64,000 bases of DNA from Patescibacteria group bacterium (GCA_041665365.1 JBAYIY010000001.1:104720-168719), one strand, 5' to 3'; numbered from the stretch's first letter, positions 33,143-57,466 are shown. Made by a program: numbers and translations. Notes: generated by a model not told the origin, from the sequence alone.

Positions 33143-33913
33143 CTATACAGGGCGTAATGTACCGGCAAACACCTGCCAGGCCAGTAAAGATTTCGCCACC
33201 AGACTTAGGATAATATACACTTTTTCGCCATAGGTATACTCTTTCCATTTCCCGATTTTCTTATATTGCAATAACATATTCACTGCAAATGAATTGAAGA
33301 AGAGAAACATCGAGAAAAAAATCCAATACACAAAGGTGGGTGCATGATGATCCGCATCACCGGAAAAGGCTAAATAGCACGCAATCACAATCCAAGGGAT
33401 AGCTCCTGCAATGCAGCCAAAGATATAGGCTGTCCAATCAGTTTTTTTGGTAGATTGATTATGCAATTCCATCATCCAGCCAAACAAAATCATCATGGCA
33501 TTTAAGCCAAACATCAGCAGCAAACTAAATACATCATAGATACCAACCAACATACCAATCACTACAATCATCAGCGACGAGCTCAGTGAATATTCAACCC
33601 AACGAGCATAGTTCGCGCCCTTTTTTAAATGGTTCACATACCATTCATAGATACCGGGTAACGACACCATTAAATGTGCTAGGGCCGACAAGGCAAAAAA
33701 ACCTGCCACCAGGGGCCCTACCGATACAGTAGTTAACTCTTGCAAATTTTGTTGCAGCGTGAAGTTTTGAGTATTGAAACTTAAAAATGCAGTCGTTAGT
33801 GGTACTGCAAACGAATTGCTCAATACCAGTACAGCGACAGCTTGCACGGCATGCAAACAAAACATGACGATATTCCAGCGTCGCAAATTAAGAAATGTAT
33901 TTGGGTTCGGCAT
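33143..33913 (-). CDS. Heliorhodopsin (paralog 1)
   Basis: 256 aa, 7 TM. Heliorhodopsin family signatures: LRRWNIVMFCLHAVQA, ARWVEYSLSSSLMIVVIGML, MILFGWMME, FGCIAGAIPW, LFFNSFAV, YIILSLVAKSLLAWQVFAGTL (putative Schiff-base Lys in TM7). Confidence 0.85.
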   Translation of the reverse strand: MPNPNTFLNLRRWNIVMFCLHAVQAVAVLVLSNSFAVPLTTAFLSFNTQNFTLQQNLQELTTVSVGPLVAGFFALSALAHLMVSLPGIYEWYVNHLKKGANYARWVEYSLSSSLMIVVIGMLVGIYDVFSLLLMFGLNAMMILFGWMMELHNQSTKKTDWTAYIFGCIAGAIPWIVIACYLAFSGDADHHAPTFVYWIFFSMFLFFNSFAVNMLLQYKKIGKWKEYTYGEKVYIILSLVAKSLLAWQVFAGTLRPV

Positions 33914-36185: not shown

Positions 36186-36238
36186 GATATCACGTTGTCT
36201 CAGTTGCGACTAGAAGAAGCCTGGACTTGTGAGGAGTA
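36186..36238 (-). promoter_or_regulatory. Conserved about 50-bp intergenic motif, copy C (downstream of heliorhodopsin 2)
   Basis: GATATCACGTTGTCTCAGTTGCGACTAGAAGAAGCCTGGACTTGTGAGGAGTA. Confidence 0.35.
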
Positions 36239-36260: not shown

Positions 36261-37031
36261 TTATACTGGACGTAATGTACCGGCAAATACTTGCCAAGCC
36301 AAGAGTGATTTAGTCACCAAACTCATGACAATATACACTTTTTCACCATAGGTATAATCTTTCCATTTCCCGACTTTCTTGTATTGCAATACCATATTTA
36401 TCGCAAAACTATTGAAGAAGAGGAACATCGAGAAGAAAATCCAGTAGACAAAGGTTGGGGCTTTAAATTCTCCTTCTCCAGCAAACGCTAAATAGCAGGC
36501 GATGATAATCCACGGAATGGCACCAGCAATGCAACCAAAGATGTATGCTGTCCAGTCCGTTTTTTGTGTGGATTGATTATGTAGCTCCATCATCCAACCA
36601 AACAGAATCATCATGGCATTCAAACTAAACATCAGCACCAGGCTAAAAACGTCATACATGCCGGTCAACATCGCAATGACCACAATCATTAACGACGAAC
36701 TGAAGGTATACTCTACCCAGCGAGCATAGTTAGCCCCTGACTTTAAATTCTTCACATACCATTGATACACACCAGGCAATGAAACTATTAAGTGGGCCAA
36801 AGCTGACAGGGCTAAAAATCCAGCAATTAACGGGGCAATCGGTACTGTGGTCAGTTGCTGTAAATCTTGGCCGAGACTGCGCGTTTGCGGATTAAATTCA
36901 ACAAACAATGTCGTCAACGGTAACGCAAAGCTATTACTGACTACCAGCATGATTGTGGCTTGGATTGAATGCAGGAAGAACATCGCAATGTTCCACCGGC
37001 GTAAGTTACGAAACTTGTTAGTTATTGGCAT
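36261..37031 (-). CDS. Heliorhodopsin (paralog 2)
   Basis: 256 aa with the same signatures as paralog 1 (LRRWNIAMFFLHSIQA, ARWVEYTFSSSLMIVVIAML, FGCIAGAIPW, YIVMSLVTKSLLAWQVFAGTLRPV). The 3' coding end and about 250 bp downstream are near-identical to paralog 1. Confidence 0.85.
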   Translation of the reverse strand: MPITNKFRNLRRWNIAMFFLHSIQATIMLVVSNSFALPLTTLFVEFNPQTRSLGQDLQQLTTVPIAPLIAGFLALSALAHLIVSLPGVYQWYVKNLKSGANYARWVEYTFSSSLMIVVIAMLTGMYDVFSLVLMFSLNAMMILFGWMMELHNQSTQKTDWTAYIFGCIAGAIPWIIIACYLAFAGEGEFKAPTFVYWIFFSMFLFFNSFAINMVLQYKKVGKWKDYTYGEKVYIVMSLVTKSLLAWQVFAGTLRPV

Positions 37032-37076: not shown

Positions 37077-37127
37077 GATATCATATTGTCTCGATTGCGA
37101 CTAGAAAAAACCTAGACTTGTGACGGC
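37077..37127 (-). promoter_or_regulatory. Conserved about 50-bp intergenic motif, copy D (about 50 nt upstream of heliorhodopsin 2 start; GGAGGA RBS follows)
   Basis: GATATCATATTGTCTCGATTGCGACTAGAAAAAACCTAGACTTGTGACGGCA. Confidence 0.4.
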
Positions 37128-37145
37128 ATGGCGGCGTAATACGAA

Positions 37146-38117
37146 CTAGCTTTTTTGAGTATGGTGATTAGCCTTTACGCTCTGATGGGCGTCCTGTAGT
37201 AAGGATTTTAGGGTAGAGGCAAAGGTTGGATGACCTAATAACTGTGGTAACTGTATGCTGCGAATCTCATCTGGCAAAGACAAGTTGGCAAATACTGACA
37301 CCTGACTCATTTTTAATTCTTCTACCGGAACAATATCAAGTAAAGAACCCTGCCTTTGCTCAAAGCGTTCTACTAGCTTAGTTAATTCCTGCTTAAACTC
37401 TTCGGGATATTGTTTAACATAACGTTTGTTCGTGAACCCTACTCTGCTAGCCAATTGAATGATATCTTGCGGTTGTATATTCTCACCTAAAAATCTACGA
37501 ATGAGAAGTACCTCGTTGGAAGTACCCTCTAGCATTGATAAATTATTTTGCGCAAAATCAATCCTTTTTTTATGAATAATAGCAACCATTAAGGCTTGCT
37601 GAGCGTAGGATCGGAAAGTCCCTTTATCATGATGATTTAATAATCTCAAAATTTCTTCAGCGGCCAAATCAAAATTACCAACCAGCAACTGACGCTCAAG
37701 ACCATAGTAGTATAAAAAGACATAACTTAGATTAGTTTCTTGAGTGACATCCCGCAACCAATTAATATATTGATACCGTTGTTCAGGCGTAAGTCCAGTA
37801 TATGATGGATAGTAAAGCTTATCCTGTTCAAGCTCATCATTTTGCTCCACTGGTAATTGCGTCCAAATTAAACTGGGTTCAGCAAAAAAATTATGTCGAT
37901 CTGGTATGTTAGTCCTTATACCGTCTGGACCCAGACTAATAGTGATATTGATGGTAGTGGCGGATTGAATTTTAGATGGGGGTTCATCTGTAAACCAAAG
38001 TAAGGACAGCGTAGGTTGAGGTATATGAAAAGAATTACGCAGTATAGACGGTATACTTGGCACTAGCGCTTGGTGCCTTGGAATTAAAGGTGAAAAAAGC
38101 TTTTTGAAAATGTTCAT
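37146..38117 (-). CDS. Hypothetical protein (last gene of five-gene defence-like operon)
   Basis: 323 aa. Its start overlaps the stop of the upstream HEPN-like gene by 4 nt. No confident domain; a TerB-N-like assignment is only a guess. Confidence 0.4.
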   Translation of the reverse strand: MNIFKKLFSPLIPRHQALVPSIPSILRNSFHIPQPTLSLLWFTDEPPSKIQSATTINITISLGPDGIRTNIPDRHNFFAEPSLIWTQLPVEQNDELEQDKLYYPSYTGLTPEQRYQYINWLRDVTQETNLSYVFLYYYGLERQLLVGNFDLAAEEILRLLNHHDKGTFRSYAQQALMVAIIHKKRIDFAQNNLSMLEGTSNEVLLIRRFLGENIQPQDIIQLASRVGFTNKRYVKQYPEEFKQELTKLVERFEQRQGSLLDIVPVEELKMSQVSVFANLSLPDEIRSIQLPQLLGHPTFASTLKSLLQDAHQSVKANHHTQKS

Positions 38118-38866
38118 TTTATAGATTCAAAATATTTTCTTGCTGCGCTTGTAAAATACAGGTAATCTTTTACTGCATTATAAACATTTTTCTGCTCTTC
38201 TTTGGAACAAGCAAATAAATGATTATTTTTAGACCAAAACCCTTGTTTAAACATTATGGATTTCTTTTTTACTTTCCCAAAATATAGATTCTTCCAAACT
38301 AAATTGCCTCTCTCAATATGATGCTTGCTACTCTTATCTTTTAGAATACCTTCCAAATAACCATTCGTGAAATAATTAGCACTATTATTGGCTGTGTTTT
38401 CTTCTAACTTCTTCCAGCCGATTTTTTTGATAAAATGATTGATACGTTGAGTATCACTACAGCTAAAAAATCTCAACTGCCAAACAAGTTCATCTAAAAC
38501 TAGTAACCAAGATCGTTTAGCATAAAATGGGAAATCAGGATAGCGAACAAAGTTATAAACACTTAAGTTCTTTACCAAATCAAGGCACTCTTTGTAGATG
38601 TTAAAAGATGGAATATTAGATTTACATAAATTATACAAATACTCTAGTTCATGCCATTGATTACCAGTTGCATTTCTGGGAACTTTTACGCCGTTGTATA
38701 AAAGTATCGATTTCAAATATTTCTCAATACTTTGATGAGCTAAAGTAAGGAACTGATCCAAGCACTGGTTGCGGAACAGTGTACGTGCAGCAATGTAGTC
38801 TCTATCAGCATAGGATCTAAAATCACTAGCTATCGCATTTCTATGGATAATACTTTCGTCGATCAT
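38114..38866 (-). CDS. HEPN-domain-like protein
   Basis: 250 aa. N-terminal DRDYIAARTLFRNQCLDQFLTLAHQSIEKYLKSIL is the HEPN helix-pair pattern, plus RNATGNQWH (a loose Rx4-7H). Confidence 0.45.
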   Translation of the reverse strand: MIDESIIHRNAIASDFRSYADRDYIAARTLFRNQCLDQFLTLAHQSIEKYLKSILLYNGVKVPRNATGNQWHELEYLYNLCKSNIPSFNIYKECLDLVKNLSVYNFVRYPDFPFYAKRSWLLVLDELVWQLRFFSCSDTQRINHFIKKIGWKKLEENTANNSANYFTNGYLEGILKDKSSKHHIERGNLVWKNLYFGKVKKKSIMFKQGFWSKNNHLFACSKEEQKNVYNAVKDYLYFTSAARKYFESIK

Positions 38867-38897
38867 AATAAGTATTATAATCCTAGGTACATTTTAA

Positions 38898-40067
38898 TCA
38901 TAGCCGTATCTTAGAATGATCACTGCCAGTCACATCCCATTCATCCGTTTCTTTTTTTATCTTTGGTAATTTTAATAAACCTTTCTTGAGCCGAGATATG
39001 ACCAGCTGTTTAATAGCATCCTCTTGGTCATAACCATGTAAACGGCCTGTCAGTACTCCCATTCTAAAGGTTAAGCCTTCAGACATTAGTGACCAGTTGG
39101 TGGCCGCTAAATTCTTTTCAAGCAACCTGGTCAAAGTTCTGATGCTATCGTATGACTGGCGCGTTGATTCATCTTGGACTGAAAAGCCAATCTGCACATC
39201 TTTACTAATCGCCGGCTGTTCAAAAGTGATTTGAGTATATTCGTTTTTTGTAGCTAGTGCCTCTACACGCTTGCGTAACTGCGGGACAGTGAGTCGTTCA
39301 ATGGACGCAATTAATTCATAAAGCCCCTTATGCTCTTCCTGTTCTTTGGCTTCATCGGTTATCTTTTTCATTTCTTCTAAATCTACCAGAAACTTCAAAT
39401 ACTCATGACCCTCTTCATCGGAAATGCAATATTTCTTACGCAATTTCTTAAACTCAATTTCACTCATTTCATCCTTTTTTTCTGTTTTTAAATCAAGCAC
39501 ATCTACAGTTTTGTGATGGCATTTCGTACAACGCTCTATAGTTGTAATAATATCTCCCTTACGTGATCGTTCTGTTTTAATTGTTTGCCGATGACAACGC
39601 ACACAAACTTTTGGTTGCGATACGTATTCAATGCCATCATGGTAGAAAGCCCGGCCCCGATGTTTACTTGGACAAGTGTAAAAGAATAAGACGACGTCTT
39701 TGCCGTCTCGATCAGTTAATGTTTTAAAGTCAGATTGTATAGACTCATGGCATGTGGAGCAGTAGATATTTTTTGGAGCAATTGCTGCTTCAAGTAACTG
39801 ATCCCGCACCCTGTCACGCTCCATCCATTCTTGGATTGTTTTTTCTTTGTTTTTCCATAGCTCACCTTTTTCAAAATACATTTGCAATTCAAGATTCATT
39901 TTTGAAAAAGTTTTATATTGCGCAAACTCAGGGGTTCCTTTCTTAAAATTTTTAGCTTCACTGACACGCTGCTGTGCATGCTCGATCATCTGACAATACT
40001 TGATAGTATGCAAGTCATATCTATCATCATAATGAGTTCTTTCTTTCAGCTCTCGTACAGTACCCAT
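38898..40067 (-). CDS. Zinc-finger protein, hypothetical
   Basis: 389 aa. CSTCHES...CPSKHRG...CVRCHRQ...CTKCHHK form repeated C-x2-C-H treble-clef-like knuckles. A coiled-coil middle region follows. Confidence 0.45.
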   Translation of the reverse strand: MGTVRELKERTHYDDRYDLHTIKYCQMIEHAQQRVSEAKNFKKGTPEFAQYKTFSKMNLELQMYFEKGELWKNKEKTIQEWMERDRVRDQLLEAAIAPKNIYCSTCHESIQSDFKTLTDRDGKDVVLFFYTCPSKHRGRAFYHDGIEYVSQPKVCVRCHRQTIKTERSRKGDIITTIERCTKCHHKTVDVLDLKTEKKDEMSEIEFKKLRKKYCISDEEGHEYLKFLVDLEEMKKITDEAKEQEEHKGLYELIASIERLTVPQLRKRVEALATKNEYTQITFEQPAISKDVQIGFSVQDESTRQSYDSIRTLTRLLEKNLAATNWSLMSEGLTFRMGVLTGRLHGYDQEDAIKQLVISRLKKGLLKLPKIKKETDEWDVTGSDHSKIRL

Positions 40068-40082
40068 CTAAGCTTTGTACAA

Positions 40083-41180
40083 CTATTTTTTTGTATGCGC
40101 TTCAAGTACGTCAATATAATTTTCCAAACGGCTAAGCAATTCATCATAAGTGACTATTACCACATCTTTCAATCCCTGCGTGAGTAGTCGCAAGTCATCT
40201 TTCTGCTTTTGCTCAGTTAAAATGGAAGCATTCCCTGCTAAGATAATGCCTCGTGGACGCAAGACCTGCAGTTGAATTTTATGTTTATCTATCAGATAAC
40301 TTCGAATAGCATCACCATGACGATGAACTTGGGACATGTAATTCTCGGTTTGAATAATAGCTTTAGAAATTTCTTTATCAAAGTAATAATTGCCTCGGCT
40401 ATCATCTGGCAGAAGCAGATTGGTATCCGGTTTTTTTATTTCTAGAATATCTAAATAGTTATCATGTGTTATTAAAGCAAAGTCAGGTAATTTTGTATTA
40501 CCAATTGCTACATTCATTTTCTCTATTGCTTTAATGTACCCTTGTTGAATAAGTAAAATATTATCCCGAATATATTTTTGCCACCACGACTCCGCATGCT
40601 TCGATTGGATGGCTTTCTTGAGATAAGCTGCCAACTCTTTCAATGATTTAATTTGTGCTTGGGCTTTTAAGAGGTTAACGCTACTAATTGATTCAGATGC
40701 AATATACCCCGGTAAAAACTTATTCAGAACATCCCTATCCTCTGAGGAAAGCTGAGGTATCATCGCTGGACTAATAACCTTAGATAATAAACCTGGCACA
40801 TATACTTGGATATCCTCAGCAGCAAAATGATTCGGATATGTTGCAGCAAAAAAATGATCAACAATATCATTTTTAATATCTCGGTTTCGTGTAATGCTCT
40901 CTCCACCCATTTTAGAAAGCAATGTTTTTGAAGTGTAAACAAGGTATTTTCCTCTAAAAAGATCTATGTGAGAATCTGAGTCTGTGATAATCCACTTATA
41001 ATTGCCTGGAAATTTACGTTGCAACTTTTGCAAAATATGTTTTCCAAAAGATATCATGCCATCCTTTTTTAAATTCGATGGCTTTTTGCCTTCGTAATAA
41101 ATACAAACTCCTTTAAGGGCATTACCATAAGTTCTATTCTTGATTTTGACATGTTTTAATTTTTTCTTTACAGCTCTCAT
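40083..41180 (-). CDS. DUF4263 (Shedu SduA-like) PD-(D/E)xK nuclease-domain protein
   Basis: 365 aa. C-terminal half ESWWQKYIRDNILLIQQGY...LPDFALITHDNYLDILEIKKPDTNLL...QTENY...RPRGIILAGN fits the DUF4263 D...E-x-K nuclease core and family pattern. Confidence 0.5.
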   Translation of the reverse strand: MRAVKKKLKHVKIKNRTYGNALKGVCIYYEGKKPSNLKKDGMISFGKHILQKLQRKFPGNYKWIITDSDSHIDLFRGKYLVYTSKTLLSKMGGESITRNRDIKNDIVDHFFAATYPNHFAAEDIQVYVPGLLSKVISPAMIPQLSSEDRDVLNKFLPGYIASESISSVNLLKAQAQIKSLKELAAYLKKAIQSKHAESWWQKYIRDNILLIQQGYIKAIEKMNVAIGNTKLPDFALITHDNYLDILEIKKPDTNLLLPDDSRGNYYFDKEISKAIIQTENYMSQVHRHGDAIRSYLIDKHKIQLQVLRPRGIILAGNASILTEQKQKDDLRLLTQGLKDVVIVTYDELLSRLENYIDVLEAHTKK

Positions 41181-41189
41181 AAGTTCATT

Positions 41190-41750
41190 TTATTGTTTGA
41201 TTGTGTTCACTTGAAATTTACACAGCCGACAAATACCATTCACGTTGGTATTTGTGTTAACGTAAAATTCAAATCGATCCTTATTACATACTGGGCATAA
41301 TACTAGTCCATTTTTATTTTTAGTCTCTCGTATTGCATTCAAAACAGTTTTAGCATTGCGGACATACTGATCTACTTTTTCTTTGTTATCAATATACCCC
41401 TTTACCCAAAGATCTGTGGTAATACGTCCGGCTGATGTTTCACGATATAAAATTTTGCCTTGGTTTAATAATTTTTCCCAATACTGACGACTATGCCCGT
41501 ATTGTTTGGCGATATCACTGGATGATAATATTTCAGCATTGGCCGGGATGTAGCCCCTTTGCTCCATGAATCTAATGCAATCCTTTAAAGCTTGGGCCAA
41601 AGCTGATTCCTTTTTTGCTTTTGACAAGCCTTGCGCAAGAGTTAACCTAACACTGAGTGTTCCTCCACTTGAAGTATTGGCGTGCCAGTAAAATTTATTT
41701 GAATCTTTAAGCATTGTGCCAATGCTAACATATCTGGTTTCTTTTGGCAA
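41190..41750 (-). CDS. Hypothetical protein with C-terminal zinc ribbon (first gene of operon)
   Basis: 186 aa. CPVCNKDRFEFYVNTNTNVNGICRLCKF. Confidence 0.4.
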   Translation of the reverse strand: MPKETRYVSIGTMLKDSNKFYWHANTSSGGTLSVRLTLAQGLSKAKKESALAQALKDCIRFMEQRGYIPANAEILSSSDIAKQYGHSRQYWEKLLNQGKILYRETSAGRITTDLWVKGYIDNKEKVDQYVRNAKTVLNAIRETKNKNGLVLCPVCNKDRFEFYVNTNTNVNGICRLCKFQVNTIKQ

Positions 41751-41769
41751 CCTATGTTAAACTGTCTCT

Positions 41770-42663
41770 ATGGCTACAAAATTTAAAGCTCAGGGGAAAA
41801 ATATCCTACATAACCAAGATAGATTTTGCTTGGTACTTAAAGACTATGGATTAGTTAGCACCCCTTTCGTGCTAAATGAATTCAGCAAACAGGACTTACT
41901 GAAACCAGGTAAGGGAAAGCAATATCAACAAGAACAGATTATTGTTTATGATAATATTCGAAGGCATTTGTTTAAACAATATCAGTTACCGATTATTTTT
42001 CAGCAACACATGAATGATGGTAAGACATTCGCTACAATGCTTTCGAGTTCACCCCAAGTCATTAAAAATGATTTAAAAAAATTAAGTACAATTTTATCTT
42101 TTTTAAAAAAAATCAATAACATCTGTGCGGATGCAGGACTAAATATTGAACGCATTTTAATTGATAGCAAGGTAAATGGTTACAATAGAAAAGATATAGA
42201 ACGTGACTATAAAGCAAGTAGGAAGCACGAACTCAAAAATACTGTTATTCCAGGGTTGAAGAAACTGATCAAGACTTTTGGTTTTAGTATAAAGGATCTT
42301 CAGGAGTGGCAATCAGAGTTTGCATTTTTAGGAAAACAACATGATGACACAAAAGACTTTTTTGGTTACATGGAATGTATTCCACTCGTAGTACGACGTC
42401 GCGCAAAAAATCCGTACCGGCTAGCGATGCTTTACTACGATTACTCTTATGACTTGGAATGGGTATTACGTCAGTTGGACGAAAAAACCGTACACCTTCA
42501 TACCCTGGTTACAAATATGCCTTATCAAAAAGTTTGCGTGTATTGTAACGCAGAATACGAACCAGTAAGAGCCGATAGTAAGAATTGCGCTAAAAAAGCA
42601 TGCCAACAGGCCTATAAAAACCATCAAAAGCGTATTCAACGAGAACTTGGCAACTACAGCTAG
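41770..42663 (+). CDS. Hypothetical protein with C-terminal CxxC...C...C zinc ribbon
   Basis: 297 aa. CVYCNAEYEPVRADSKNCAKKACQQAYKNHQ. Divergent from the defence-like operon. Confidence 0.4.
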   Translation: MATKFKAQGKNILHNQDRFCLVLKDYGLVSTPFVLNEFSKQDLLKPGKGKQYQQEQIIVYDNIRRHLFKQYQLPIIFQQHMNDGKTFATMLSSSPQVIKNDLKKLSTILSFLKKINNICADAGLNIERILIDSKVNGYNRKDIERDYKASRKHELKNTVIPGLKKLIKTFGFSIKDLQEWQSEFAFLGKQHDDTKDFFGYMECIPLVVRRRAKNPYRLAMLYYDYSYDLEWVLRQLDEKTVHLHTLVTNMPYQKVCVYCNAEYEPVRADSKNCAKKACQQAYKNHQKRIQRELGNYS

Positions 42664-42747
42664 CGGAACTTTACGGAACTTTCCAAATCTCCAAACACCC
42701 TATGCTTAAATGTATTGGGTGTTTTTAATTACTAAGAAAAATAACTT

Positions 42748-44028
42748 ATGAATCAACCCATTCAAACCGTTCAGGTTAAGATAGTCGACCTAAACCCTGC
42801 CCCCTATAACCCGCGGCGCTGGGACGAAGCAGCCAAAACTCATCTCAAAGACAGCATTCAGCGCTTTGGCTTAGTAGATCCAATTATTGTTAATAATAAT
42901 CCAGACCGTCACAATATTGTTATCGGAGGACATTTCCGGCTGCACATTGCAAAAGAACTAGGATATGTAGAGGTGCCCGTGATCTATCTCAATATCGCTG
43001 AGGTTGCCAAAGAAAAAGAACTTAATCTTCGGCTCAACAGGAATGTGGGGTCATGGAACTTCGAGTTGCTTAAAGAATTTGATCTGAACCTCTTGCTCGA
43101 TGTTGGATTTGATGATGCAGACCTTTCTATCATTTGGGATGAAATGTTAGAGGTAGAAGATGATCACTTTCATACCCAAAAAGAATTCAAAGAAGCACAA
43201 CATACTACTATTCAAGCTGGTGATTTGTTTGCGCTCGGTGATCATCGCGTCATTTGTGGTGACGCTACTCAACCCGAGGTGATTCAAGCACTGCTAGGAG
43301 GTCAGCATGTACAGATGATTTACTCTGATCCCCCATACAACATTGCCTTAAATTATTCTAAGGGTATAAGCACCCAAGGCAAGTATGGCCATAGCCAGCT
43401 GAATGATCATCAATCCGATTCTGAGTATCAACTATTTTTACAACGTTCCCTAGAAACCGCGTTGACAGTACTGGATGATGCAGGTCATGTGTTTTACTGG
43501 TGCGATGAGCGATATATTGGCTTGTTGCAGCAACTGTATACCACAGTAGGGATCAACCACAAACGGGTCTGTCTTTGGATTAAAAACAACCACAATATGA
43601 CTCCCCAAGTGGCATTTAATAAACTATATGAACCATGTGTCTACGGCACTCGTGGTAAACCTTATCTGGCTGAAATTAAAAACCTGCACGAAATTCTGAA
43701 CAAGGAAGTGGGTACCGGCAATCGCGCTATTGATGATCTCCAAGACCTCTTAAATATTTGGTTCGAAAAACGCCTGCCTGGAATGCAATATACACACCCC
43801 ACTGAAAAGCCAGCTACCCTACATGAAAAGCCCATACGCCGTTGTACTAAGCCCGGTGACCGTATATTGGATAGCTTCGGAGGTTCTGGTTCAACGTTAA
43901 TCGCCTGTGAACAACTAAAGCGGGTAGCCTATGTAGCTGAAATCGACCCTATTTTTACACAATTAATACTCAATCGCTATGAACAACTTACTGGAAATAA
44001 AGCCAAACAGCTCAACGGAACTAAATGA
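42748..44028 (+). CDS. ParB-like nuclease domain fused to N6-adenine/N4-cytosine DNA methyltransferase
   Basis: 426 aa. N-terminus VKIVDLNPAPYNPRRWDE...IVIGGHFRLHIAKELG (ParB/Srx fold), DPPYN catalytic motif, C-terminal SFGGSGSTLIACEQLKR (SAM-binding motif I). This architecture is common in phage. Confidence 0.75.
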   Translation: MNQPIQTVQVKIVDLNPAPYNPRRWDEAAKTHLKDSIQRFGLVDPIIVNNNPDRHNIVIGGHFRLHIAKELGYVEVPVIYLNIAEVAKEKELNLRLNRNVGSWNFELLKEFDLNLLLDVGFDDADLSIIWDEMLEVEDDHFHTQKEFKEAQHTTIQAGDLFALGDHRVICGDATQPEVIQALLGGQHVQMIYSDPPYNIALNYSKGISTQGKYGHSQLNDHQSDSEYQLFLQRSLETALTVLDDAGHVFYWCDERYIGLLQQLYTTVGINHKRVCLWIKNNHNMTPQVAFNKLYEPCVYGTRGKPYLAEIKNLHEILNKEVGTGNRAIDDLQDLLNIWFEKRLPGMQYTHPTEKPATLHEKPIRRCTKPGDRILDSFGGSGSTLIACEQLKRVAYVAEIDPIFTQLILNRYEQLTGNKAKQLNGTK

Positions 44029-44749
44029 ACCACAACAGTTAGGTTACCACTACGTCATGTGTGGCGATGCTACTAATCCAACTGATGTCGCTCAACTGAT
44101 AGGAAAACAGAAAATTAATCTAGTACTGACGGATCCACCGTACGGAGTTGGCTATGTAGAAAGTAAACAAGGTTTTCAAACTCTTCGTCATGAAAAAGTG
44201 ATCGCTAATGACCACGTCCAAAGCGAAGAGGAATATCAAAACTTTATGGAGCAATGGCTAAAACTGACAGTGCCGCATTTAGCCAAACGGAATGCTTTCT
44301 ATGTATTTAACTCAGATAAGATGCTATTTGCCCTCCGCCGTGCCATGGATAACCACAAGTTACACTTTGCTCAGTTACTAATCTGGATGAAACAACATGC
44401 TGTTATTGGTCGCTTAGATTACCTGCCACAACACGAGCTCATTATGTATGGCTGGTACGGCACGCATCGTTTCTATAAAAATAAAGATAAGTCCGTCCTC
44501 TTCTGCCCAAAGCCGCAGCGGAGTCGCCTGCACCCAACCACCAAACCAGTGAGTTTGCTACGCCGCCTCATACTGAATAATACCCAGGTGGGTGACGTTG
44601 TGTACGATCCCTTTGGTGGCTCAGGGTCGACGCTGATTGCATGTGAACAAACCCAACGCCGTTGTCTCATGATGGAACTTGATCCAGATTATTACACGAC
44701 GATTCTACAACGCTTTGAGCAGCACATTTTGAAATATGGGGATCAATAA
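43979..44749 (+). CDS. DNA methyltransferase (DPPYG; beta-class N6/N4)
   Basis: 256 aa. HYVMCGDATN, LTDPPYGVGY, DPFGGSGSTLIACEQTQR. Paralogous to the MTase domain of the upstream gene. Overlaps that gene by 50 bp. Confidence 0.75.
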   Translation: MNNLLEIKPNSSTELNEPQQLGYHYVMCGDATNPTDVAQLIGKQKINLVLTDPPYGVGYVESKQGFQTLRHEKVIANDHVQSEEEYQNFMEQWLKLTVPHLAKRNAFYVFNSDKMLFALRRAMDNHKLHFAQLLIWMKQHAVIGRLDYLPQHELIMYGWYGTHRFYKNKDKSVLFCPKPQRSRLHPTTKPVSLLRRLILNNTQVGDVVYDPFGGSGSTLIACEQTQRRCLMMELDPDYYTTILQRFEQHILKYGDQ

Positions 44750-44751
44750 AT

Positions 44752-45189
44752 ATGGAACCTAAACACAAGAGAAGAATGACCATTGAAAAACGTCAGCAAA
44801 CCCAAAAGGACGCCTTAATTGAACTACTGAAGAAAACACCCATCATCCAAGCGGCTTGCCAAAAGATGGAGCTGGGACGGGCTACCTACTATCGCTGGCT
44901 AAAAGATGACCCAGCATTTGCAGAGGCAGTACACACTGCACTCGACCATGGCGTGGGACTGGTAAATGATATGGCAGAGTCGCAGTTAATTTCTGCGATT
45001 AAAGATCAAAATATGACGGCCATCATCTTCTGGCTAAAACATCACCACATGGCTTATACAACACGTATTGAATTGACGGGCGGTCAATCTACGGATCTGC
45101 CTGAATTAACTCCAGAACAGCAGCGTGTAGTTCAAGTTGCTCTTGAACAAGCACGACTCCTAAATAATGAGTCACCACAGATACTATGA
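44752..45189 (+). CDS. Terminase small subunit-like HTH protein
   Basis: 145 aa. AACQKMELGRATYYRWLKDDPAFAEAV is an HTH, with the gene directly upstream of terL and overlapping it by 4 nt. Confidence 0.45.
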   Translation: MEPKHKRRMTIEKRQQTQKDALIELLKKTPIIQAACQKMELGRATYYRWLKDDPAFAEAVHTALDHGVGLVNDMAESQLISAIKDQNMTAIIFWLKHHHMAYTTRIELTGGQSTDLPELTPEQQRVVQVALEQARLLNNESPQIL

Positions 45190-46733
45190 ACACAGCTGAA
45201 CAATTTGCGATTATCAGCAGCACAAAATCGGTACGGAAAGCTATAACAATGCAATCGCATTTTTGGTTTTTTCATGTTTACCTTAATCAATATATCACCT
45301 ACGAAACGGCGCCGTTTCATCGAGAAATGTTACAGCTGACTGAAAACCCACAATTGAGTTTATTGGTCTTTATGGCGTTCCGGGGTTCTGGCAAATCCAC
45401 TATCTTATCCTTGTCCTATCCCTTATGGGCCTTGCTAGGGAAGAAAAAGAAACGCTGTATCTTAATTTTAAGTCAGACCCAGTATCAAGCGCAGTCATTA
45501 TTGCAGCACATTAAACATGAACTGGAGGAAAATATTTTATTACGTAAAGATTTTGGACCATTTGTCACACGCACTACGCAATGGAGCGCGGACACCATTG
45601 TTATTCCTCGGTACGATGCCAAAATTATTGCTGCTTCTACAGAACAAAGTATTCGTGGAATTCGTCATGCAGAAGTAAGGCCCGACCTCATTATTTGTGA
45701 TGATATTGAAGATTTGTCATCAGTTAAAACCATGGAGTCAAGAAACAAAACATTTCAATGGTTAAGTGGTGAAATCATCCCTGCCGGTGACCGACACACG
45801 CAGACCGTCATTTTAGGAAATTTACTACATGAAGATTCCTTGCTGATGCGGATCAATAAACTGATTGATGATGACCGGATTGATGGTATTGTAAAACGCT
45901 ATCCCATCATCTCAGAGGGCAAACCTTTGTGGGCTGCTAAATTTCCTAACGAAGCGAGTCTGGTTCAGGAACAGCGTAAGATTGGTAATCCCATTGCCTG
46001 GAAACGCGAATTTGAATTACAAATTGTACCCGAAGATGGACAAGTCATTAGCTATGATGATATTCATTATTACGACACACTCCCTGAACCCAAGGAACCA
46101 GAACAGCGAGAGCTGGATGATTACACAAATGTTATCCGTTTAGAAAAGGTCTGTACTGGTATTGATTTAGCCATTAGTAAAAAAGACTCTGCAGACTATA
46201 CAGCAATGGTTTCTATTGAAATATTTAGTTTTGAGCACGAGGAAATTAAATTCTATGTGTTGCCGCACCCTATCAATAAACGTCTTAGTTTTGCCGAAAC
46301 GATTGAACAGGCGGATAATATTAGTAAACGTTTAGGTAAAACGCATCCTACTCAACTCTACGTCGAGCAGGTAGCTTATCAGGCTAGTGCTGTGGAAACC
46401 CTCAAGGAACGTCGTCTGCCGGTGGAAGGCATTACTGTGACCGGGGCAGATAAACGAGCCCGATTACAAATCGTCTCACCTTTGATTGAACAAGGCCAGA
46501 TCCTGTTTCCACGTACGGGTGCAGAGGATTTAATTGCCCAAATCGTTGGATTTGGAGTAGAGCGCCATGACGATTTACTAGACGCCTTTACCTTAGTCAT
46601 CATGCAGGTGATGAATATGCGGCCAGCTTGGCAGCTAAGTGATATGAATAATGAACCCATTAAACGGATGCGCATGTACAGTAAATGCGTACCAGGAGGC
46701 TACTTTGATCCCCCAAACTGGAACATTATCTAA
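45186..46733 (+). CDS. terL: Phage terminase large subunit
   Basis: 515 aa. Walker A FMAFRGSGKSTILS, Walker B LIICDDIED, and a C-terminal RNaseH-like nuclease (TGIDLAISKKDSADYTAMV ... DDLLDAF). Confidence 0.75.
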   Translation: MNTAEQFAIISSTKSVRKAITMQSHFWFFHVYLNQYITYETAPFHREMLQLTENPQLSLLVFMAFRGSGKSTILSLSYPLWALLGKKKKRCILILSQTQYQAQSLLQHIKHELEENILLRKDFGPFVTRTTQWSADTIVIPRYDAKIIAASTEQSIRGIRHAEVRPDLIICDDIEDLSSVKTMESRNKTFQWLSGEIIPAGDRHTQTVILGNLLHEDSLLMRINKLIDDDRIDGIVKRYPIISEGKPLWAAKFPNEASLVQEQRKIGNPIAWKREFELQIVPEDGQVISYDDIHYYDTLPEPKEPEQRELDDYTNVIRLEKVCTGIDLAISKKDSADYTAMVSIEIFSFEHEEIKFYVLPHPINKRLSFAETIEQADNISKRLGKTHPTQLYVEQVAYQASAVETLKERRLPVEGITVTGADKRARLQIVSPLIEQGQILFPRTGAEDLIAQIVGFGVERHDDLLDAFTLVIMQVMNMRPAWQLSDMNNEPIKRMRMYSKCVPGGYFDPPNWNII

Positions 46734-46806
46734 GAGAAAGTTACCAACAAGTTACCTACAGCTGTCACTGGATAGCCTACAAAGGGTGTGACATTACTGT
46801 AGATAG

Positions 46807-48120
46807 ATGATTACCACTACCCTAGATACAACTCGAGTCAACCTTAAGTACTGCCTGTATGCGCGTAAGTCTTCAGAGGAAGACGAACGGCAAGCCATGT
46901 CGATTGAATCACAAGTCAATGAAATGCTGCAGCTTGCTGAGCAACAGGGGCTACAGGTCACTGATATCCGCCGTGAGGCCCATTCAGCTAAAAATTCAGG
47001 CCAGCGCGAAGTCTTAAATACTCTCTTGGCAGATATTGCCACAGATATGTTTGATGGAATACTCACGTGGGCGCCAGATCGATTAAGTCGTAATGCTGGC
47101 GACCTAGGCTCAATTGTCGATCTGATGGATCAAGGGCACATCAAAGAAATTCGTACCCACGGCCAGACGTTCAGCAATTCACCTAATGAAAAATTCCTAC
47201 TGATGATTCTGGGTTCTCAGGCCAAGCTGGAAAATGATCACCGGGGTCTTAATGTGAAGCGCGGCCTACGGGCCAAAGCCGGTACGGGCTGGCGTCCAGG
47301 GATGCCGCCACTTGGATACAACATCATGAAAGCGATTGGACCAAATGACAAGAAGATTGTGATTGATCCAGAGCGAGCTGAGACGATCCAACTGATCTTT
47401 AAAAAGGTAGGGCTCTATGGGTTTAGCGGCCGGATGATTCATCGCTGGTTAAAAGAAGAAACTCCCTTTACTACACGTAGTGGTAATATGCTGGCACTAA
47501 GCGCCATTTTCCGCATGATGAAAAATCCATTTTACTATGGCATGTTCGAATTCCCTGAGGGCAGCGGTAACTGGTATGTTGGTAAACATGACCCACTCAT
47601 TACGAAAGATGTCTTTGATGCTGCTAATGAACAGATGCAGCGGCCAGATACTGAAATAACAGTCTGGGGAGCAAAGAATTTTCACTTTACACAACTCCTC
47701 ACCTGCGGAGGATGTGGTTCAGGAGTAACCGCAGAAGAAAAGTTTAAAAAGTTGCTCGATGGAAGTAAGAGGCGGTACGTGTATTATCACTGCACACGAG
47801 GACGTGATGTGAACTGTGCCGAAAAGTTTATTCGGGAAGAGGAACTTCTAAAACAACTACTGTACATTATTGATCAGGTTGATTTAAACACGATTGCAGC
47901 TAAGCGAAAATTCCAGGAAGAACTAGAACGCTTCAGAAAATTTGCACGAGGCGTGCTTGGACAGGTGACAGATGGCTCAACTGGCCAAAAAGTCGTTGAT
48001 ATGAAGATGTATGTGAGATATGTGCTGCAAGAAGGAACTAGAGAAGAGAAGCAGGAGATACTAAAATGTTTGGATAGTAAGCTGATGTTGAAGGATCAGA
48101 AAGTGAATATTGAAAATTAA
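46807..48120 (+). CDS. Large serine recombinase (integrase/resolvase family)
   Basis: 437 aa. N-terminal resolvase domain with catalytic Ser (LYARKSSEEDERQAMSIESQ), a recombinase domain, and a zinc ribbon CGGCGS...YYHCTRGR. Confidence 0.8.
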   Translation: MITTTLDTTRVNLKYCLYARKSSEEDERQAMSIESQVNEMLQLAEQQGLQVTDIRREAHSAKNSGQREVLNTLLADIATDMFDGILTWAPDRLSRNAGDLGSIVDLMDQGHIKEIRTHGQTFSNSPNEKFLLMILGSQAKLENDHRGLNVKRGLRAKAGTGWRPGMPPLGYNIMKAIGPNDKKIVIDPERAETIQLIFKKVGLYGFSGRMIHRWLKEETPFTTRSGNMLALSAIFRMMKNPFYYGMFEFPEGSGNWYVGKHDPLITKDVFDAANEQMQRPDTEITVWGAKNFHFTQLLTCGGCGSGVTAEEKFKKLLDGSKRRYVYYHCTRGRDVNCAEKFIREEELLKQLLYIIDQVDLNTIAAKRKFQEELERFRKFARGVLGQVTDGSTGQKVVDMKMYVRYVLQEGTREEKQEILKCLDSKLMLKDQKVNIEN

Positions 48121-48380
48121 ATTTCTGATTTTTCTATATTCTTCTTGAAACAATCTTCAACTTGCTTCCAATTCTCATTCAAATAATATTGTATGCTTGC
48201 TATACTACATACTTCACAAGTAATGTTTAGTGACCGATTATCACAAATTTTGTTTACAAAATTAGGTTCAGTTTTAACATCATGAACGCTAAATATTTTA
48301 TTATTAGCTTGTTTTACTAGTAATACGTTTCCTGGATTTTTTAGAGGATTAACTTTAGGCATAAAGATATAAGATAACAA
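48117..48380 (-). CDS. Hypothetical small protein
   Basis: 87 aa, ORF only. Confidence 0.25.
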   Translation of the reverse strand: MLSYIFMPKVNPLKNPGNVLLVKQANNKIFSVHDVKTEPNFVNKICDNRSLNITCEVCSIASIQYYLNENWKQVEDCFKKNIEKSEI

Positions 48381-48451
48381 GTTAGTCTTGTTGGGTTAAA
48401 AAACAAACGTTCTGAGTATGGTGACAACTGGCCTCAGCAAATCAGAGGTGC

Positions 48452-50684: not shown

Positions 50685-53516
50685 CTACAACCCATAGCCA
50701 TAGCTGAAGGTCCAAACACCAGTCTGGCTCCCGTTGGGGGTGATGGTGTCGGTGCAGTGGAGCAGAGCACCTCGCACGACGCAGATGCCGTCAGTGCCAT
50801 CACCGTCGAAGTCCGCGAAGTACCACTGGCTATCCAAGGTGGTATCACCGAAGGTGAACCAGTAGTCGTAGACCCCAGAGGTATTGTCGTCGACGTAGAA
50901 CCGGTTACCTTCACGGAAGATCAGGTCAGCCAGGCCGTCACCGTTGAGATCGGCCAGGTAGTAGTCGTCGGCTCCGTTGCCCGTACCGTAGTACAGGTAG
51001 GTGTCCATGATACCGTCGAGATTGCGGTCGATCTGGAGCTGGCTGCCAAAGCGAGCTGCGATGGTAGTGTGCCAGTACAAGAACTGGTCAGCGGACACGT
51101 CCGCATAGACCAACACGTAGTCGGCGATGCCGTCGGCACCCATGTAGTCGTAGTAGCTGGTGCGGCCGGAACGCCAGATGATGTATTCTCCCGTTCCGAT
51201 CACTTCGCCCGGAACCGTCCACGTGCCGTAGAGGCCGTCGTAGAGGCAGAGCAAGGTGGTTGCACGCCGGACGCAGGGATCATCGTCACCGTTGCCGTCG
51301 AAGTCGAAGAAGATGTATTGATCCTCGAAGAGGAAATCTTCATCGATCTCGCCGTCACAGTCGTTGTCGAGGTCGTCGAGGAGTTCGGGAGCACCCGGAT
51401 AGGTGTGGTCAGCCGTGTCGTCGCAGTCGCCGTTGGTGCTGGACCAACCATCGTAGTCGTTGTCACCGACTTCGTCGGTCACCCCGTCACAATCGTTGTC
51501 GAGACCGTCGGGAATCTCTACGGCATAGGGGTTGATGTTGTTGCTCTGTTCGGAGCAGTCACCCTGGTCGTAGGACCAACCGTCACCGTCGAGGTCGAAG
51601 GCTTCGTCGATCAGGGCATCACAGTCGTTGTCGAAGGTGTCCCACAGTTCCGGGGCACCCGGGTAGGTGTGGTCGGCCGTGTCGTCGCAGTCGCCGTCGT
51701 CGGGGGTGTAGGAGTCGTAGTCCTGATCCAGATCGTTGTCAGCCACTTCGATGTAGACGAATGGAGCAGTGCAGTCAGACTGCAGACCACCAAAGTTGCC
51801 GAACAGCAACGTGCCATCCGTCGGCAGGTTGCTGACGATGTCCTGCTGATCTCCCTGTTCTTCGAAGGTCGTGGCACTGGTGTGCTGACCCAAGTAGAGC
51901 GTGCCGGAACTGTTCAGACGGAGCAGATCAGGGTAGTCGTCGTTGTAGTCGAGCGGGTAGACGAAGTAGTCTCCGTCGGTGCCACCGACATCGTTGGCCA
52001 TCGTACTGACACTCAGCCACTGCAGCGTGCTGCTGTACTGGGCCAGGTAGGCTTCCACGGTGCTGTTCGTTTCGTCGATCCGCAGGAAGTCGTCCCGGCC
52101 ATCGGCATCGGCATTGAGGTTCGACACGAGGTAGGTGTTGCTGGGTGAACCCCAACCGGTCGCGATGGTCGCACTGTTTCCAGTTGTATCCAAGCGCTGC
52201 CAGCCCAGTTCGACTCCACCGCTGTTGGTGGTGCCGACCAGGATTTCACCCTTACCGTTACCGTTGAAGTCTCCGACCAAGAAGTGACTGTCGGTGGAAC
52301 CGAAGGACTCACTCCAGGTGGTCAGGTCAGCGAAGTCGCTGCCGATGTTGGTGCCGATCCGCCACTTGATGCTGCTCCCATTGGGATAGCCGAGTACCAG
52401 GTCCAGATCGTCGTCGTTGTCCATGTCGGTCAGGAAGGCGTGGCTGTAGCCGTTGTTGGCCTTCAGCCAGCGATCGCGACCGACGAAGGTGCCATCACCG
52501 TTGCTGACGTACACCTGAACGTAGGTGTAGTTGCCGTTGTCCGTGACGTTGACGATATCGTCGTTACCGTCATTGTCCAGGTCGCCTACCAGCCAGGTGT
52601 TGACGTTGTTGGTGTTGCCCAGGCCAGTCATGGTGTAGCTACTGTCGGGCAGCTTGAGGCTGACGCTGTTCCCAGAACCGGTGTGGTAGTAGGGTTTGAT
52701 GGTGAAGGTGTGGGTACTGGCGTCTGCGGTGACGGTGAGCAGGTGAATGGTGTAAACGTCGGAGGTGCAGGTGGAGACTTCGGCATTGTAGGTCGGAGGA
52801 CAGCTGGCCCAGAGGTAGTCTGAGTCAGTTGCTGCATCGCAGTCGAAGTCCGAATGCTGGCTGGAAGTGCCTTCGTTGGGACAGCCATTCGGGATATCAC
52901 AGCAGGTAGCGTTGTCGTCATTGAGGTTGTAGGGATCGAGCCAGTAGTCATGACTGAGGTACTGAAGTGATCCGTAGTCCTGAACGCCGAAATGGAGATG
53001 CGCGCCGTCAGAGTAGCCCGAGTTACCCATTTGACCGATGAGGGTGTTGGAACTGACGGAGTTGCCGACCGCCACGGTGATAGAACCAGACACGAGATGA
53101 GTGTACTTGGTGGTGTAGTCGTAGATGCTGTCACCATCCACATCATGCTTGATATCCACGAAGCAGCCCCAAGTAGGATTTCCATTGGGGTACGTATTAG
53201 GACAGTCACTGTTCTGGATATTAGACACGACACCAGAAGCGGCGGCGTAGACGTTGTCGCCTTCGTCGCCGTCGAAGTCATATCCACCGTGGCTCGCGGG
53301 CAACGGATAATAATCGACTTCATACTGCGCGGCAGAACAACTCACACTGTAGTTCCAGGCACCGCCATTGATCTCGACGCTGTTGTTGTGGATCGGCAGA
53401 ACGAAGGGACCATAGGCCAGAGCCTTGGTGGTGGGCAAGAAGAAGCCCAGGATCATGAGAAGCAGAACGAACAGAGGCTTGCGCATTGGAGTTTCCTTTT
53501 GACTTTGAATTGTCAA
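50685..53516 (-). CDS. GC-rich secreted multidomain protein: M23 peptidase + FG-GAP/VCBS-like repeats + MopE-like Cys-rich repeats
   Basis: 943 aa, signal peptide. M23 motif HLVSG...GQMGNSGYSDGAHLHFGVQDYG. FG-GAP-like repeats LVGDLDNDGNDDIV, FLTDMDNDDDLDLVLG, LVGDFNGNGKGEILVG. Repeats YPGAPELWDTFDNDCDALIDE and YPGAPELLDDLDNDCDGEIDE. GC is about 58%. All overlapping ORF-track ORFs in this span are antisense artefacts. Confidence 0.65.
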   Translation of the reverse strand: MTIQSQKETPMRKPLFVLLLMILGFFLPTTKALAYGPFVLPIHNNSVEINGGAWNYSVSCSAAQYEVDYYPLPASHGGYDFDGDEGDNVYAAASGVVSNIQNSDCPNTYPNGNPTWGCFVDIKHDVDGDSIYDYTTKYTHLVSGSITVAVGNSVSSNTLIGQMGNSGYSDGAHLHFGVQDYGSLQYLSHDYWLDPYNLNDDNATCCDIPNGCPNEGTSSQHSDFDCDAATDSDYLWASCPPTYNAEVSTCTSDVYTIHLLTVTADASTHTFTIKPYYHTGSGNSVSLKLPDSSYTMTGLGNTNNVNTWLVGDLDNDGNDDIVNVTDNGNYTYVQVYVSNGDGTFVGRDRWLKANNGYSHAFLTDMDNDDDLDLVLGYPNGSSIKWRIGTNIGSDFADLTTWSESFGSTDSHFLVGDFNGNGKGEILVGTTNSGGVELGWQRLDTTGNSATIATGWGSPSNTYLVSNLNADADGRDDFLRIDETNSTVEAYLAQYSSTLQWLSVSTMANDVGGTDGDYFVYPLDYNDDYPDLLRLNSSGTLYLGQHTSATTFEEQGDQQDIVSNLPTDGTLLFGNFGGLQSDCTAPFVYIEVADNDLDQDYDSYTPDDGDCDDTADHTYPGAPELWDTFDNDCDALIDEAFDLDGDGWSYDQGDCSEQSNNINPYAVEIPDGLDNDCDGVTDEVGDNDYDGWSSTNGDCDDTADHTYPGAPELLDDLDNDCDGEIDEDFLFEDQYIFFDFDGNGDDDPCVRRATTLLCLYDGLYGTWTVPGEVIGTGEYIIWRSGRTSYYDYMGADGIADYVLVYADVSADQFLYWHTTIAARFGSQLQIDRNLDGIMDTYLYYGTGNGADDYYLADLNGDGLADLIFREGNRFYVDDNTSGVYDYWFTFGDTTLDSQWYFADFDGDGTDGICVVRGALLHCTDTITPNGSQTGVWTFSYGYGL

Positions 53517-56125: not shown

Positions 56126-57058
56126 TTATAAGGAAAGCATTAACTCACCCTCAACTAGTCCAGCACGAATGCTCGGGTGGATAGATTGGTATTCAGTATT
56201 ATCCTGCATAGTTTGGTAGATGGGCTGAAACTCTAAGTTTTCCCAGTTAAACTTTTCAAATGTCTCTTTTCCCATCTGCAAACCAACTGCATCTTTTATA
56301 GATTCAGCTCCAAATTCGTCAACGAATGGCACCTGGTAAGAGATGTCAACATACTCTACCCCATCAACCCTGAAAGCCTCCTGACCAAATTTGATGAAGT
56401 CAGTATATGTATCTTCGACTAAGTCTTGCTCGTCCCAAAAGGTATCTTGTGTACGTGTTAGCCATGCTGTCTTATATTCCTCGTCCCATTGCACATCATA
56501 ACCATTGCGTGTCCTGATGCTATCGTCTAAAGCAATCCAGAGTTTATCTAGTGTCGTTGGTTCCGGCTTAGGTTCTTCTTTGACTTCTTCAACCACAGCG
56601 GGAGCAACTTCTTCTTGAACGGGTTCCTGGACCACATTGGTATTTGATACAACGGGAGCATTAACTACATCTGCCGTATTGGTATCTTCGTTTGGTACCA
56701 CTTCGTTCGTATTCACTACTGCGTTAGTAGCTACGTTGGTATTCTTATTAGTGTTTTGAGCTATTTTAGCTGTATTGTCCGTCGAGCTCGGAAAAGTAAA
56801 TATTGATGCTGCAATGAAAAACGTACCTATAAAGAAAGCCATGAGACGAGGTATTTTTTTATGAATTATACTCTCAAACCATTGACGTGATGGTGGAAGC
56901 AGTAACAACCCGAGCAGTAGCATGGCTAGTCCTGATACAATGCTGCTAAACACGAGCAAGATACTGATGAATATAATGACGATGCCAAATACCCATCCAA
57001 GGATGTGGTTACCTTCTTTGGCGGAAGGTGTTGTGACTTGCGAATTTTCGCTGGCCAT
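56126..57058 (-). CDS. Membrane protein with N/T/V-rich low-complexity region, hypothetical
   Basis: 310 aa with two N-terminal TMs. NTNKNTNVATNAVVNTNEVVPNEDTNTADVVNAPVVSNTNVV. Confidence 0.45.
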   Translation of the reverse strand: MASENSQVTTPSAKEGNHILGWVFGIVIIFISILLVFSSIVSGLAMLLLGLLLLPPSRQWFESIIHKKIPRLMAFFIGTFFIAASIFTFPSSTDNTAKIAQNTNKNTNVATNAVVNTNEVVPNEDTNTADVVNAPVVSNTNVVQEPVQEEVAPAVVEEVKEEPKPEPTTLDKLWIALDDSIRTRNGYDVQWDEEYKTAWLTRTQDTFWDEQDLVEDTYTDFIKFGQEAFRVDGVEYVDISYQVPFVDEFGAESIKDAVGLQMGKETFEKFNWENLEFQPIYQTMQDNTEYQSIHPSIRAGLVEGELMLSL

Positions 57059-57384
57059 ATTGTTGTGTAGTTAGGGATTTGTTAGATTGGTTCAGAAAAC
57101 ACAAAGGGTCCCCTGAACCAGCGACAGCCCTTACGGAACTGCCACCCATCCTTTCGAATGGGTACCCTAACTACAAGATGCTGATCAGGAGACCTTCTCT
57201 ACGTAGTTAGGGATTTATAACCATGCCGCTGGAAATCAACGGTTTAGGCCATTAAATTGTATTTAAAGTATAGCTTGAAAAGCACCAGAAAGAAAGTCTG
57301 GGATTTTGAAGTTACCAACAATCACCCCATTCAAGCCACGTGCAAGCATGTGGGGTTTTAGACCCAAACTGGGACACTGACTCA

Positions 57385-57413: not shown

Positions 57414-57466
57414 ACTTTTGAGAGGATGAGGTTGATGGGTCACCTCCAGAACTTTCTGAAATCAAG

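Follow-up and report, generated by a model that had tools for sequence, protein, structure and literature searches.

Five clustered genes around a Shedu nuclease on a patescibacterial island are probably a stack of independent defence-type genes

Patescibacteria (the Candidate Phyla Radiation, CPR) are uncultured bacteria with very small genomes, reported to be poor in CRISPR (clustered regularly interspaced short palindromic repeats). In a 64,000-nucleotide (nt) stretch of one such genome (GCA_041665365.1 JBAYIY010000001.1:104720-168719; hereafter the window), five genes follow one another on the minus strand. They are numbered here g1 to g5 from the upstream end (Table 1), and the second of them encodes a nuclease of the Shedu type (SduA). 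A first-pass annotation of this DNA proposed that the five make up a novel multi-component defence system around Shedu, or alternatively a stack of small systems. According to the literature, Shedu consists of a single gene and is often found in restriction-modification (R-M) loci, transposons and prophages. Do the five genes of this locus, then, work as one machine? Comparison with homologous loci points to the other answer: the cargo quite probably consists of defence-type genes that are stacked but independent and that reassort horizontally, and not of one machine; each of the five families is found elsewhere, mostly without the others.

The first line of evidence is a census of gene neighbourhoods. 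Close full-length SduA homologues were collected with a profile, and the 32 corresponding loci in species-representative genomes (Patescibacteria, Acidobacteriota, Bacteroidota, Oligoflexia and others) were searched by tblastn with every protein of the window. In 31 of the 32 loci g1, g3, g4 and g5 are all missing, and the immediate neighbours of these SduA homologues are mutually unrelated. At loci anchored on the TerB_N-domain protein encoded by g5, searches by tblastn or phmmer found no HEPN gene of the g4 type at any of the 80 metagenome and 21 IMG/VR loci. The neighbours of TerB_N are highly varied there, with 51 singleton families and a Pfam content that ranges from DUF2779 nucleases and helicases to housekeeping genes. 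Nine of ten loci of the g4 family lack TerB_N, and no other window gene was found at six IMG/VR loci of this family. The complete five-gene order was detected only in contigs with identical protein and gene order (L001 and L002; loci are designated by L and a number). ORFs (open reading frames) of the fetched loci were called with a simple longest-ORF heuristic. As many metagenome contigs are short, a partner that is missing from a locus is not always informative, and the contexts of g1 and g4 rest on few loci.

The five genes are thus not co-conserved, and the proposal of a novel multi-component system around Shedu does not hold. The annotation had itself stated that it would fall if the g2 product failed to match DUF4263 and the five genes were not co-conserved elsewhere; the match exists, but the co-conservation does not. 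One integrated five-component defence system would fit the co-directional and tightly spaced arrangement with no predicted internal terminator, as well as the fact that all five genes come from defence-associated families or defence contexts. Nevertheless, all pairwise associations but two fail in more than 90% of homologous loci, the modules reassort among related islands and the spacing is typical of the genome. On the strength of these gene neighbourhoods, we regard such a system as effectively excluded.

The second line of evidence is the element that carries the genes, since the same backbone bears different cargo combinations, which supports a stack of small systems. An ~11-kb integrative element of this CPR genome spans about 37.1-48.1 kb of the window and has the five genes as its cargo arm. 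Elements of this kind recur in the window (37100-48200) and in L003, L015, L028, L057, L063, L081 and L011/L013, with backbone proteins at 40-76% amino acid identity between contigs of Patescibacteria type and a second methyltransferase that is optional; the backbone was found in at least seven loci. Protein clustering of eight related loci showed that the serine recombinase, TerL, TerS and the ParB-methyltransferase are constant, while SduA, TerB_N, g3 and DUF2188, all in the variable arm, are shuffled independently of one another. Across the island family the cargo varies between Shedu, TerB_N, g3, PDC-S21, PDC-S16 and Gabija. On the same backbone (65-76% identity), L003 carries S24-DUF2188-DUF4917-g3, and the shared backbone bears TerB_N-g3 in L057, DUF2188-SduA in L028 and TerB_N in L063. 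One Joint Genome Institute contig holds TerB_N, a g3-like gene and SduA in a stretch of ~13 kb, each in a cassette of its own; two of these cassettes abut serine recombinases. The GC content of the five cargo genes is 0.32-0.39, compared to 0.42-0.45 for the island backbone.

The tight linkage of the five genes had also been taken as unusual. The arrangement itself was found as annotated, with five co-directional minus-strand ORFs, all of them matched by independent gene calls on the source contig, spacers of 9, 15 and 31 nt, and a g5 start that overlaps the g4 stop by 4 nt. However, co-directional neighbours in the window are separated by a median gap of 25 nt and 57% of such gaps are no longer than 31 nt, so that the tight spacing of the five genes is no more than expected by chance. 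They are moreover part of a 14-gene co-directional run. An Rfam scan of the cluster detected no RNA element.

The assignment of the 365-aa g2 product to the DUF4263/Shedu nucleases is confirmed. It matches Pfam SduA_C (PF14082) with 87.1 bits for a cut-off of 27 (E=1.9e-24), as well as 22 PADLOC SduA profiles (best 4.4e-30). Residues D233, D244, E247, K249, Q277, E279, N280 and Y281 (QxENY segment) are invariant in 32 homologues, and the region of D233/D244/E247/K249 aligns with the fiDia...LDiiEvKKP segment of the solved SduA 8ps4. Alignment of the family profile to the Shedu structures 8ps4 (2.9e-17) and 8ti8 is confined to residues 192-364. The protein is built of a family-specific N-terminal domain (1-190), for which no match was found among solved Shedu structures or Pfam families, and a C-terminal DUF4263 PD-(D/E)xK domain (~190-365). 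By its sequence, g2 encodes a genuine Shedu nuclease whose catalytic residues are intact, and it adds one more member to an established family. Its homologues (475 matches, full-length at 52-62% identity) come from several phyla, and no relatives of the subfamily were found in IMG/VR; by these matches the subfamily is distinct and well populated among Shedu.

Compared with E. coli SduA (8ps4) and B. cereus Shedu (8ti8), g2 shares the order of a variable N-terminal domain followed by a DUF4263 nuclease with complete catalytic residues. It also sits on a mobile element beside methyltransferases, a context already reported for Shedu. It differs by its unmatched 190 N-terminal residues and by its host, a metagenome-assembled genome of Patescibacteria. 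Thirty of the 32 close homologues are without any conserved neighbour, which serves as a genomic proxy for single-gene action, and the g2 SduA would act alone, like characterised Shedu. By analogy with characterised Shedu proteins, this PD-(D/E)xK nuclease would most likely be an oligomer kept inactive by autoinhibition, in which the family-specific N-terminal domain would sense invading DNA and license cleavage.

About a third of the close SduA homologues have a small co-directional ORF (~100-160 aa) 0-20 nt downstream (L011, L018, L023, L025, L028, L032, L037, L042 and L043). We considered these ORFs as a possible hidden SduA partner and rejected them, as they are mutually unrelated save for two pairs and the window has none. 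Such ORFs could encode a partner conserved in structure, or be mere neighbours.

Several observations weigh against a stack of fully independent genes. L015 (Ca. Kerfeldbacteria), the only exception among the 32 SduA loci, keeps the order g1-SduA-g3 at 66, 57 and 42% identity. The 1.8-kb contig L134 carries a HEPN gene (58% identity) followed by a TerB_N gene (52% identity) with an overlapping junction; each of these two sub-blocks was found again only once. KELShedu is a described two-gene Shedu in which a small DNA-binding partner is encoded upstream. A promoter and terminator scan of the cluster, in which overall counts are at background level, detected no intergenic terminator-like site, so that co-transcription of the five genes may well occur. 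Finally, g3-family genes lie within one gene of TerB_N in the window, in L057 and in L079, as does a fragment in L081, which seems frequent for so rare a family.

The first two of these observations could mean that two modules lie side by side: a three-gene Shedu variant, in which g1 would be the DNA-binding partner and g3 an accessory of SduA, and a two-gene HEPN-TerB_N module, in which one protein would sense and the other act. The single recurrence of each sub-block and the overlap of g4 and g5 lead us to keep this explanation, for which KELShedu is a two-component precedent, although we consider it unlikely. Thirty other SduA homologues with the same N-terminal domain (52-62% identity) occur without g1 or g3, and g3 pairs with unrelated systems elsewhere. 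The HEPN gene is missing from all 101 TerB_N loci of the census, TerB_N is missing from most HEPN loci, and L134 is too short to judge the wider context. L015 belongs to the same island lineage (its backbone is 62-73% identical to that of the window), so the shared g1-SduA-g3 order may be inherited rather than selected; an IS3-type transposase follows g3 there, with no HEPN or TerB_N gene. Within a stack of otherwise separate genes, g4-g5 is the only candidate multi-gene unit of the five. The two genes may be translationally coupled, with which their 4-nt overlap is compatible.

The gene upstream of SduA, g1, gave only weak Zn-ribbon matches in Pfam (E 0.008-0.02), located C-terminally, and a weak match to the PADLOC candidate PDC-M06B (4.8e-5). 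The sole homologue detected is the one in L015, aligned over residues 1-184 and upstream of SduA; no relatives were found at the 31 other SduA loci, in IMG/VR or in phage genomes. In KELShedu, the double-stranded DNA-binding protein KELA accompanies the DUF4263 nuclease KELB, and g1 is likewise small, a few nt upstream of the nuclease and plausibly DNA-binding. It has, however, 186 aa and a Zn ribbon whereas KELA has 111 aa, and the two are compared here by description. With a homologue upstream in just one of 32 SduA loci, g1 is not a partner of the whole subfamily, and co-inheritance of the KELShedu type was not found. The slot held by g1 is occupied in L003 by a Peptidase_S24 repressor-like gene and DUF2188. 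Occupying the first cargo or regulatory slot of the island, the g1 product probably binds DNA as a regulator; its helix-turn-helix assignment is a reading of the sequence and not a profile match. Only 19 nt separate the TTG start of g1 (41750) from the ATG of a divergent 297-aa gene (41770). Since the first 12 residues of the long g1 form are kept in the L015 homologue, this form seems real, and with 19 nt between the divergent starts the two promoters must overlap coding sequence.

The 389-aa g3 product is from a rare family: a set of 5.8 billion proteins contains 13 of its clusters. It had been described as having four C-x2-C-H knuckles and a coiled coil; the Cys pairs and the coiled coil are indeed present, but the His is not conserved. 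Eight cysteines are invariant in the family (C103, C106, C132, C155, C158, C180, C183 and C214), and invariant Cys pairs with a variable His indicate two Zn ribbons and not haem sites. A multi-haem c-type cytochrome, to which weak CXXCH and decahaem matches could have pointed, was rejected on the same ground. The haem-type scores are far below curated cut-offs, except for a marginal Paired_CXXCH_1 match with no significant stretch. In the confident AlphaFold2 (AF2) model, with a predicted local distance difference test (pLDDT) score of 85, a helical (three-helix) N-domain is followed by a Zn-ribbon region rich in β structure, then a coiled coil and, at the C-terminus, a ferredoxin-like domain. 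Its structural neighbours are generic only, and the protein has no enzymatic fold.

Relatives of g3 were not found in phage genomes. Elsewhere they keep varied company, which includes complete known systems (Avs4, GajA/GajB and PDC-S21): one lies beside PDC-S21/DUF4917 in L003, one adjoins Avs4 in L004 (PADLOC E=0) and one is near Avs4 in L133. Others adjoin a type I R-M operon in L007, without island backbone in the fetched flanks, and the Gabija pair (GajA/GajB) in L011. In L008, also without backbone in the fetched flanks, no recognisable system accompanies the g3 relative, which is beside a Schlafen/AlbA_2 gene and has a Por_Secre_tail protein among its contig neighbours. TerB_N genes are the neighbours in L057, L079 and L102, and in L081 the fragment beside TerB_N is a 222-aa piece of the g3 family. 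From these contexts we infer that g3 is a separate defence-island gene. The Avs4 of L004 (3161-8000) is split into ORFs of 1379 and 222 aa, which jointly align to the single 1581-aa Avs4 of L133 (1016-5761), and is probably a frameshifted or pseudogenised copy.

Two other readings of g3 have to be weighed. Its association with TerB_N would suit a new defence gene that cooperates with TerB_N in a modular system of Patescibacteria islands, carried by new terminase-bearing, satellite-like elements of CPR bacteria. The system would include an optional small nuclease-type third gene, namely HEPN in the window and in L134 and an RNase_H_2-superfamily gene in L079. Read from the gene contexts, this joint proposal is doubtful. 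Alternatively, g3, and possibly g1, could be an accessory of the mobile element (a regulator, a recombination directionality factor or a replication/packaging helper) and have no part in defence. Its position in or beside islands with the serine recombinase in the window, L003, L011, L015, L057 and L133, and its Zn ribbons and coiled coil with no enzymatic fold, would agree with this. Against it, g3 is found without the backbone in L007 and L008, is missing from the islands L028 and L063, and varies in its cargo position, so that we hold an accessory role to be still somewhat less probable than cooperation with TerB_N.

The 323-aa g5 product, first listed as unknown, carries a TerB_N domain (Pfam PF13208, E=2e-17). 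It also matches PADLOC SngA (3.2e-16), covering profile positions 66-198 of 528 only. This match falls in the TerB_N region of SngA, which in the Shango system works with the ATPase SngB and the helicase SngC. As no SngB ATPase or SngC helicase domain was found in the cluster or its immediate flanks, membership of g5 in a Shango system fails. We found 259 homologues, mostly in Patescibacteria. The AF2 model has a pLDDT of 85; no fold or sequence match was found in PDB, and the C-terminal half is without a known fold match. From its varied contexts, g5 is inferred to be a separate defence-island gene.

The 250-aa g4 product matches Pfam HEPN (PF05168) with 39.5 bits for a cut-off of 22 (E=7.4e-10, residues 14-115). 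The HEPN-like call is thereby upheld, with a motif that is non-canonical (R108-Y109 and H72). No His follows R108 at a distance of 5-7 residues (RYPDFPFY), nor is the canonical Rx4-6H RNase motif present across a 46-sequence alignment, in which the invariant His is H72. The other invariant residues are D21, Y24, R28, E48, Y50, K52, R108, Y109, D125, R132, G169, W191 and N193. The family comprises 450 representative clusters, mostly of ~250 aa and with a conserved C-terminal extension. A search of PDB sequences with its profile gave no match. No nucleotidyltransferase family was matched by the five proteins or the flanks, so g4 does not belong to a HEPN-MNT toxin-antitoxin pair. Both g4 and g5 are members of populous, uncharacterised subfamilies.

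In L139-L141, the closest g4 homologues are inserted in type I R-M operons, between hsdM and hsdS, once with a Fic gene upstream. A further homologue is directly upstream of hsdS on a short contig (L137) and another comes after a Type ISP R-M enzyme (L138); the junctions of g4-family and R-M genes in L137-L141 are 0-2 nt. Members of the family also occur in (pro)phage contigs. The hsdM/hsdS or Type ISP placement and the HEPN match recall R-M passengers, such as the PrrC- and Fic-type genes between hsdM and hsdS, and HEPN abortive-infection proteins. In contrast to these, g4 of the window is outside any R-M operon, lacks the Rx4-6H motif, and shares its island with methyltransferases on the other strand and with no restriction gene found. 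The g4 product would be an R-M-associated back-up module; it could be an RNase whose active site is non-canonical, or else an adaptor without catalytic activity.

All the flanks named in the first-pass annotation, that is the divergent gene, the ParB-methyltransferase, the second methyltransferase and the terminase genes, were found on the plus strand, together with a large serine recombinase. No capsid or tail gene was detected between 37.1 and 48.1 kb. In L003 and L015 the slot of the divergent gene holds a 260-aa or 270-aa gene with no detectable similarity. The two methyltransferases are 62-72% identical to their L003 and L015 counterparts. They were considered as an R-M system with the cluster and rejected, being conserved backbone genes on the opposite strand with no restriction endonuclease domain found. 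TerS and TerL are kept in L003, L015, L028, L057, L063 and L081, and homologues of the serine recombinase (48-76% identity) flank related islands. A search for attachment (att) sites gave one 15-nt repeat (14/15) near the two ends of the island, of a kind expected about four times by chance (an estimate).

The island is small, bears an integrase and packaging genes but neither capsid nor tail genes, and has a defence arm that varies among relatives; in this it resembles phage satellites and integrative islands (P4-like elements, phage-inducible chromosomal islands (PICI) and PICI-like elements (PLE)). The island differs from these by having both TerS and TerL, two methyltransferases, a large serine recombinase and a CPR host. 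This gene content suggests that the island family may represent satellite-like or packaging-competent elements of CPR bacteria.

Table 1. Coordinates of the five cargo genes, the island backbone and other features of the window.
Feature	Coordinates	Strand	Length	Remarks
g1	41190-41750	minus	186 aa from TTG	Gene callers: 174-aa form, ATG at 41714
g2 (SduA)	40083-41180	minus	365 aa	
g3	38898-40067	minus	389 aa	
g4 (HEPN)	38114-38866	minus	250 aa	
g5 (TerB_N)	37146-38117	minus	323 aa	
Divergent gene	41770-42663	plus	297 aa	C-terminal Cys pairs; no family match; backbone slot
ParB_N-N6_N4_Mtase and N6_N4_Mtase, overlapping genes	42748-44749	plus	426 aa and 256 aa	Pfam
TerS and TerL	44752-46733	plus	145 aa and 515 aa	PHROGs (TerS 7e-8; TerL phrog_38, 1e-74); NCBIfam
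Large serine recombinase	46807-48120	plus	437 aa	Resolvase, Recombinase and Zn_ribbon_recom families; presumed integrase at island end
Repeat from att-site search	37153-37167 and 48410-48424		15 nt	14/15
Paralogous heliorhodopsin genes	33143-33913 and 36261-37031	minus		Second: Pfam E=1.6e-99
Direct repeat	36186-36232 and 37077-37123		47 nt	85% identical
GC-rich region	50685-53516	minus	943 aa	Peptidase_M23, FG-GAP and MopE-type metal-binding repeats
Gene downstream of LOOT RNA	56126-57058	minus	310 aa	No family match
LOOT RNA	57123-57250	minus		Rfam RF03000; 71 bits, gathering score 46
tRNA-Gln gene	57466-57539			

Outside the island, two paralogous heliorhodopsin genes lie just downstream of the cluster. 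The 47-nt direct repeat brackets the second of them and not the island, with one arm in the gap that separates the TerB_N stop codon from the heliorhodopsin start. A LOOT RNA is located just upstream of the 310-aa gene and ~215 nt from the tRNA-Gln gene. In the region that encodes the 943-aa protein, the GC content rises up to 0.58, compared to 0.41 for the window, and the long ORFs on both strands there are a compositional artefact.

Three leads are kept from this locus: the rare family of the 389-aa protein with its Zn ribbons, the HEPN proteins of ~250 aa that are embedded in R-M operons, and the islands as a family. For the discovery of defence systems the locus calls for caution, as tight co-directional spacing in compact genomes is no sign of a functional unit. 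That Patescibacteria carry Shedu and other defence genes as exchangeable cargo of small islands with terminase and recombinase genes contributes to what is known of their resistance to phages.

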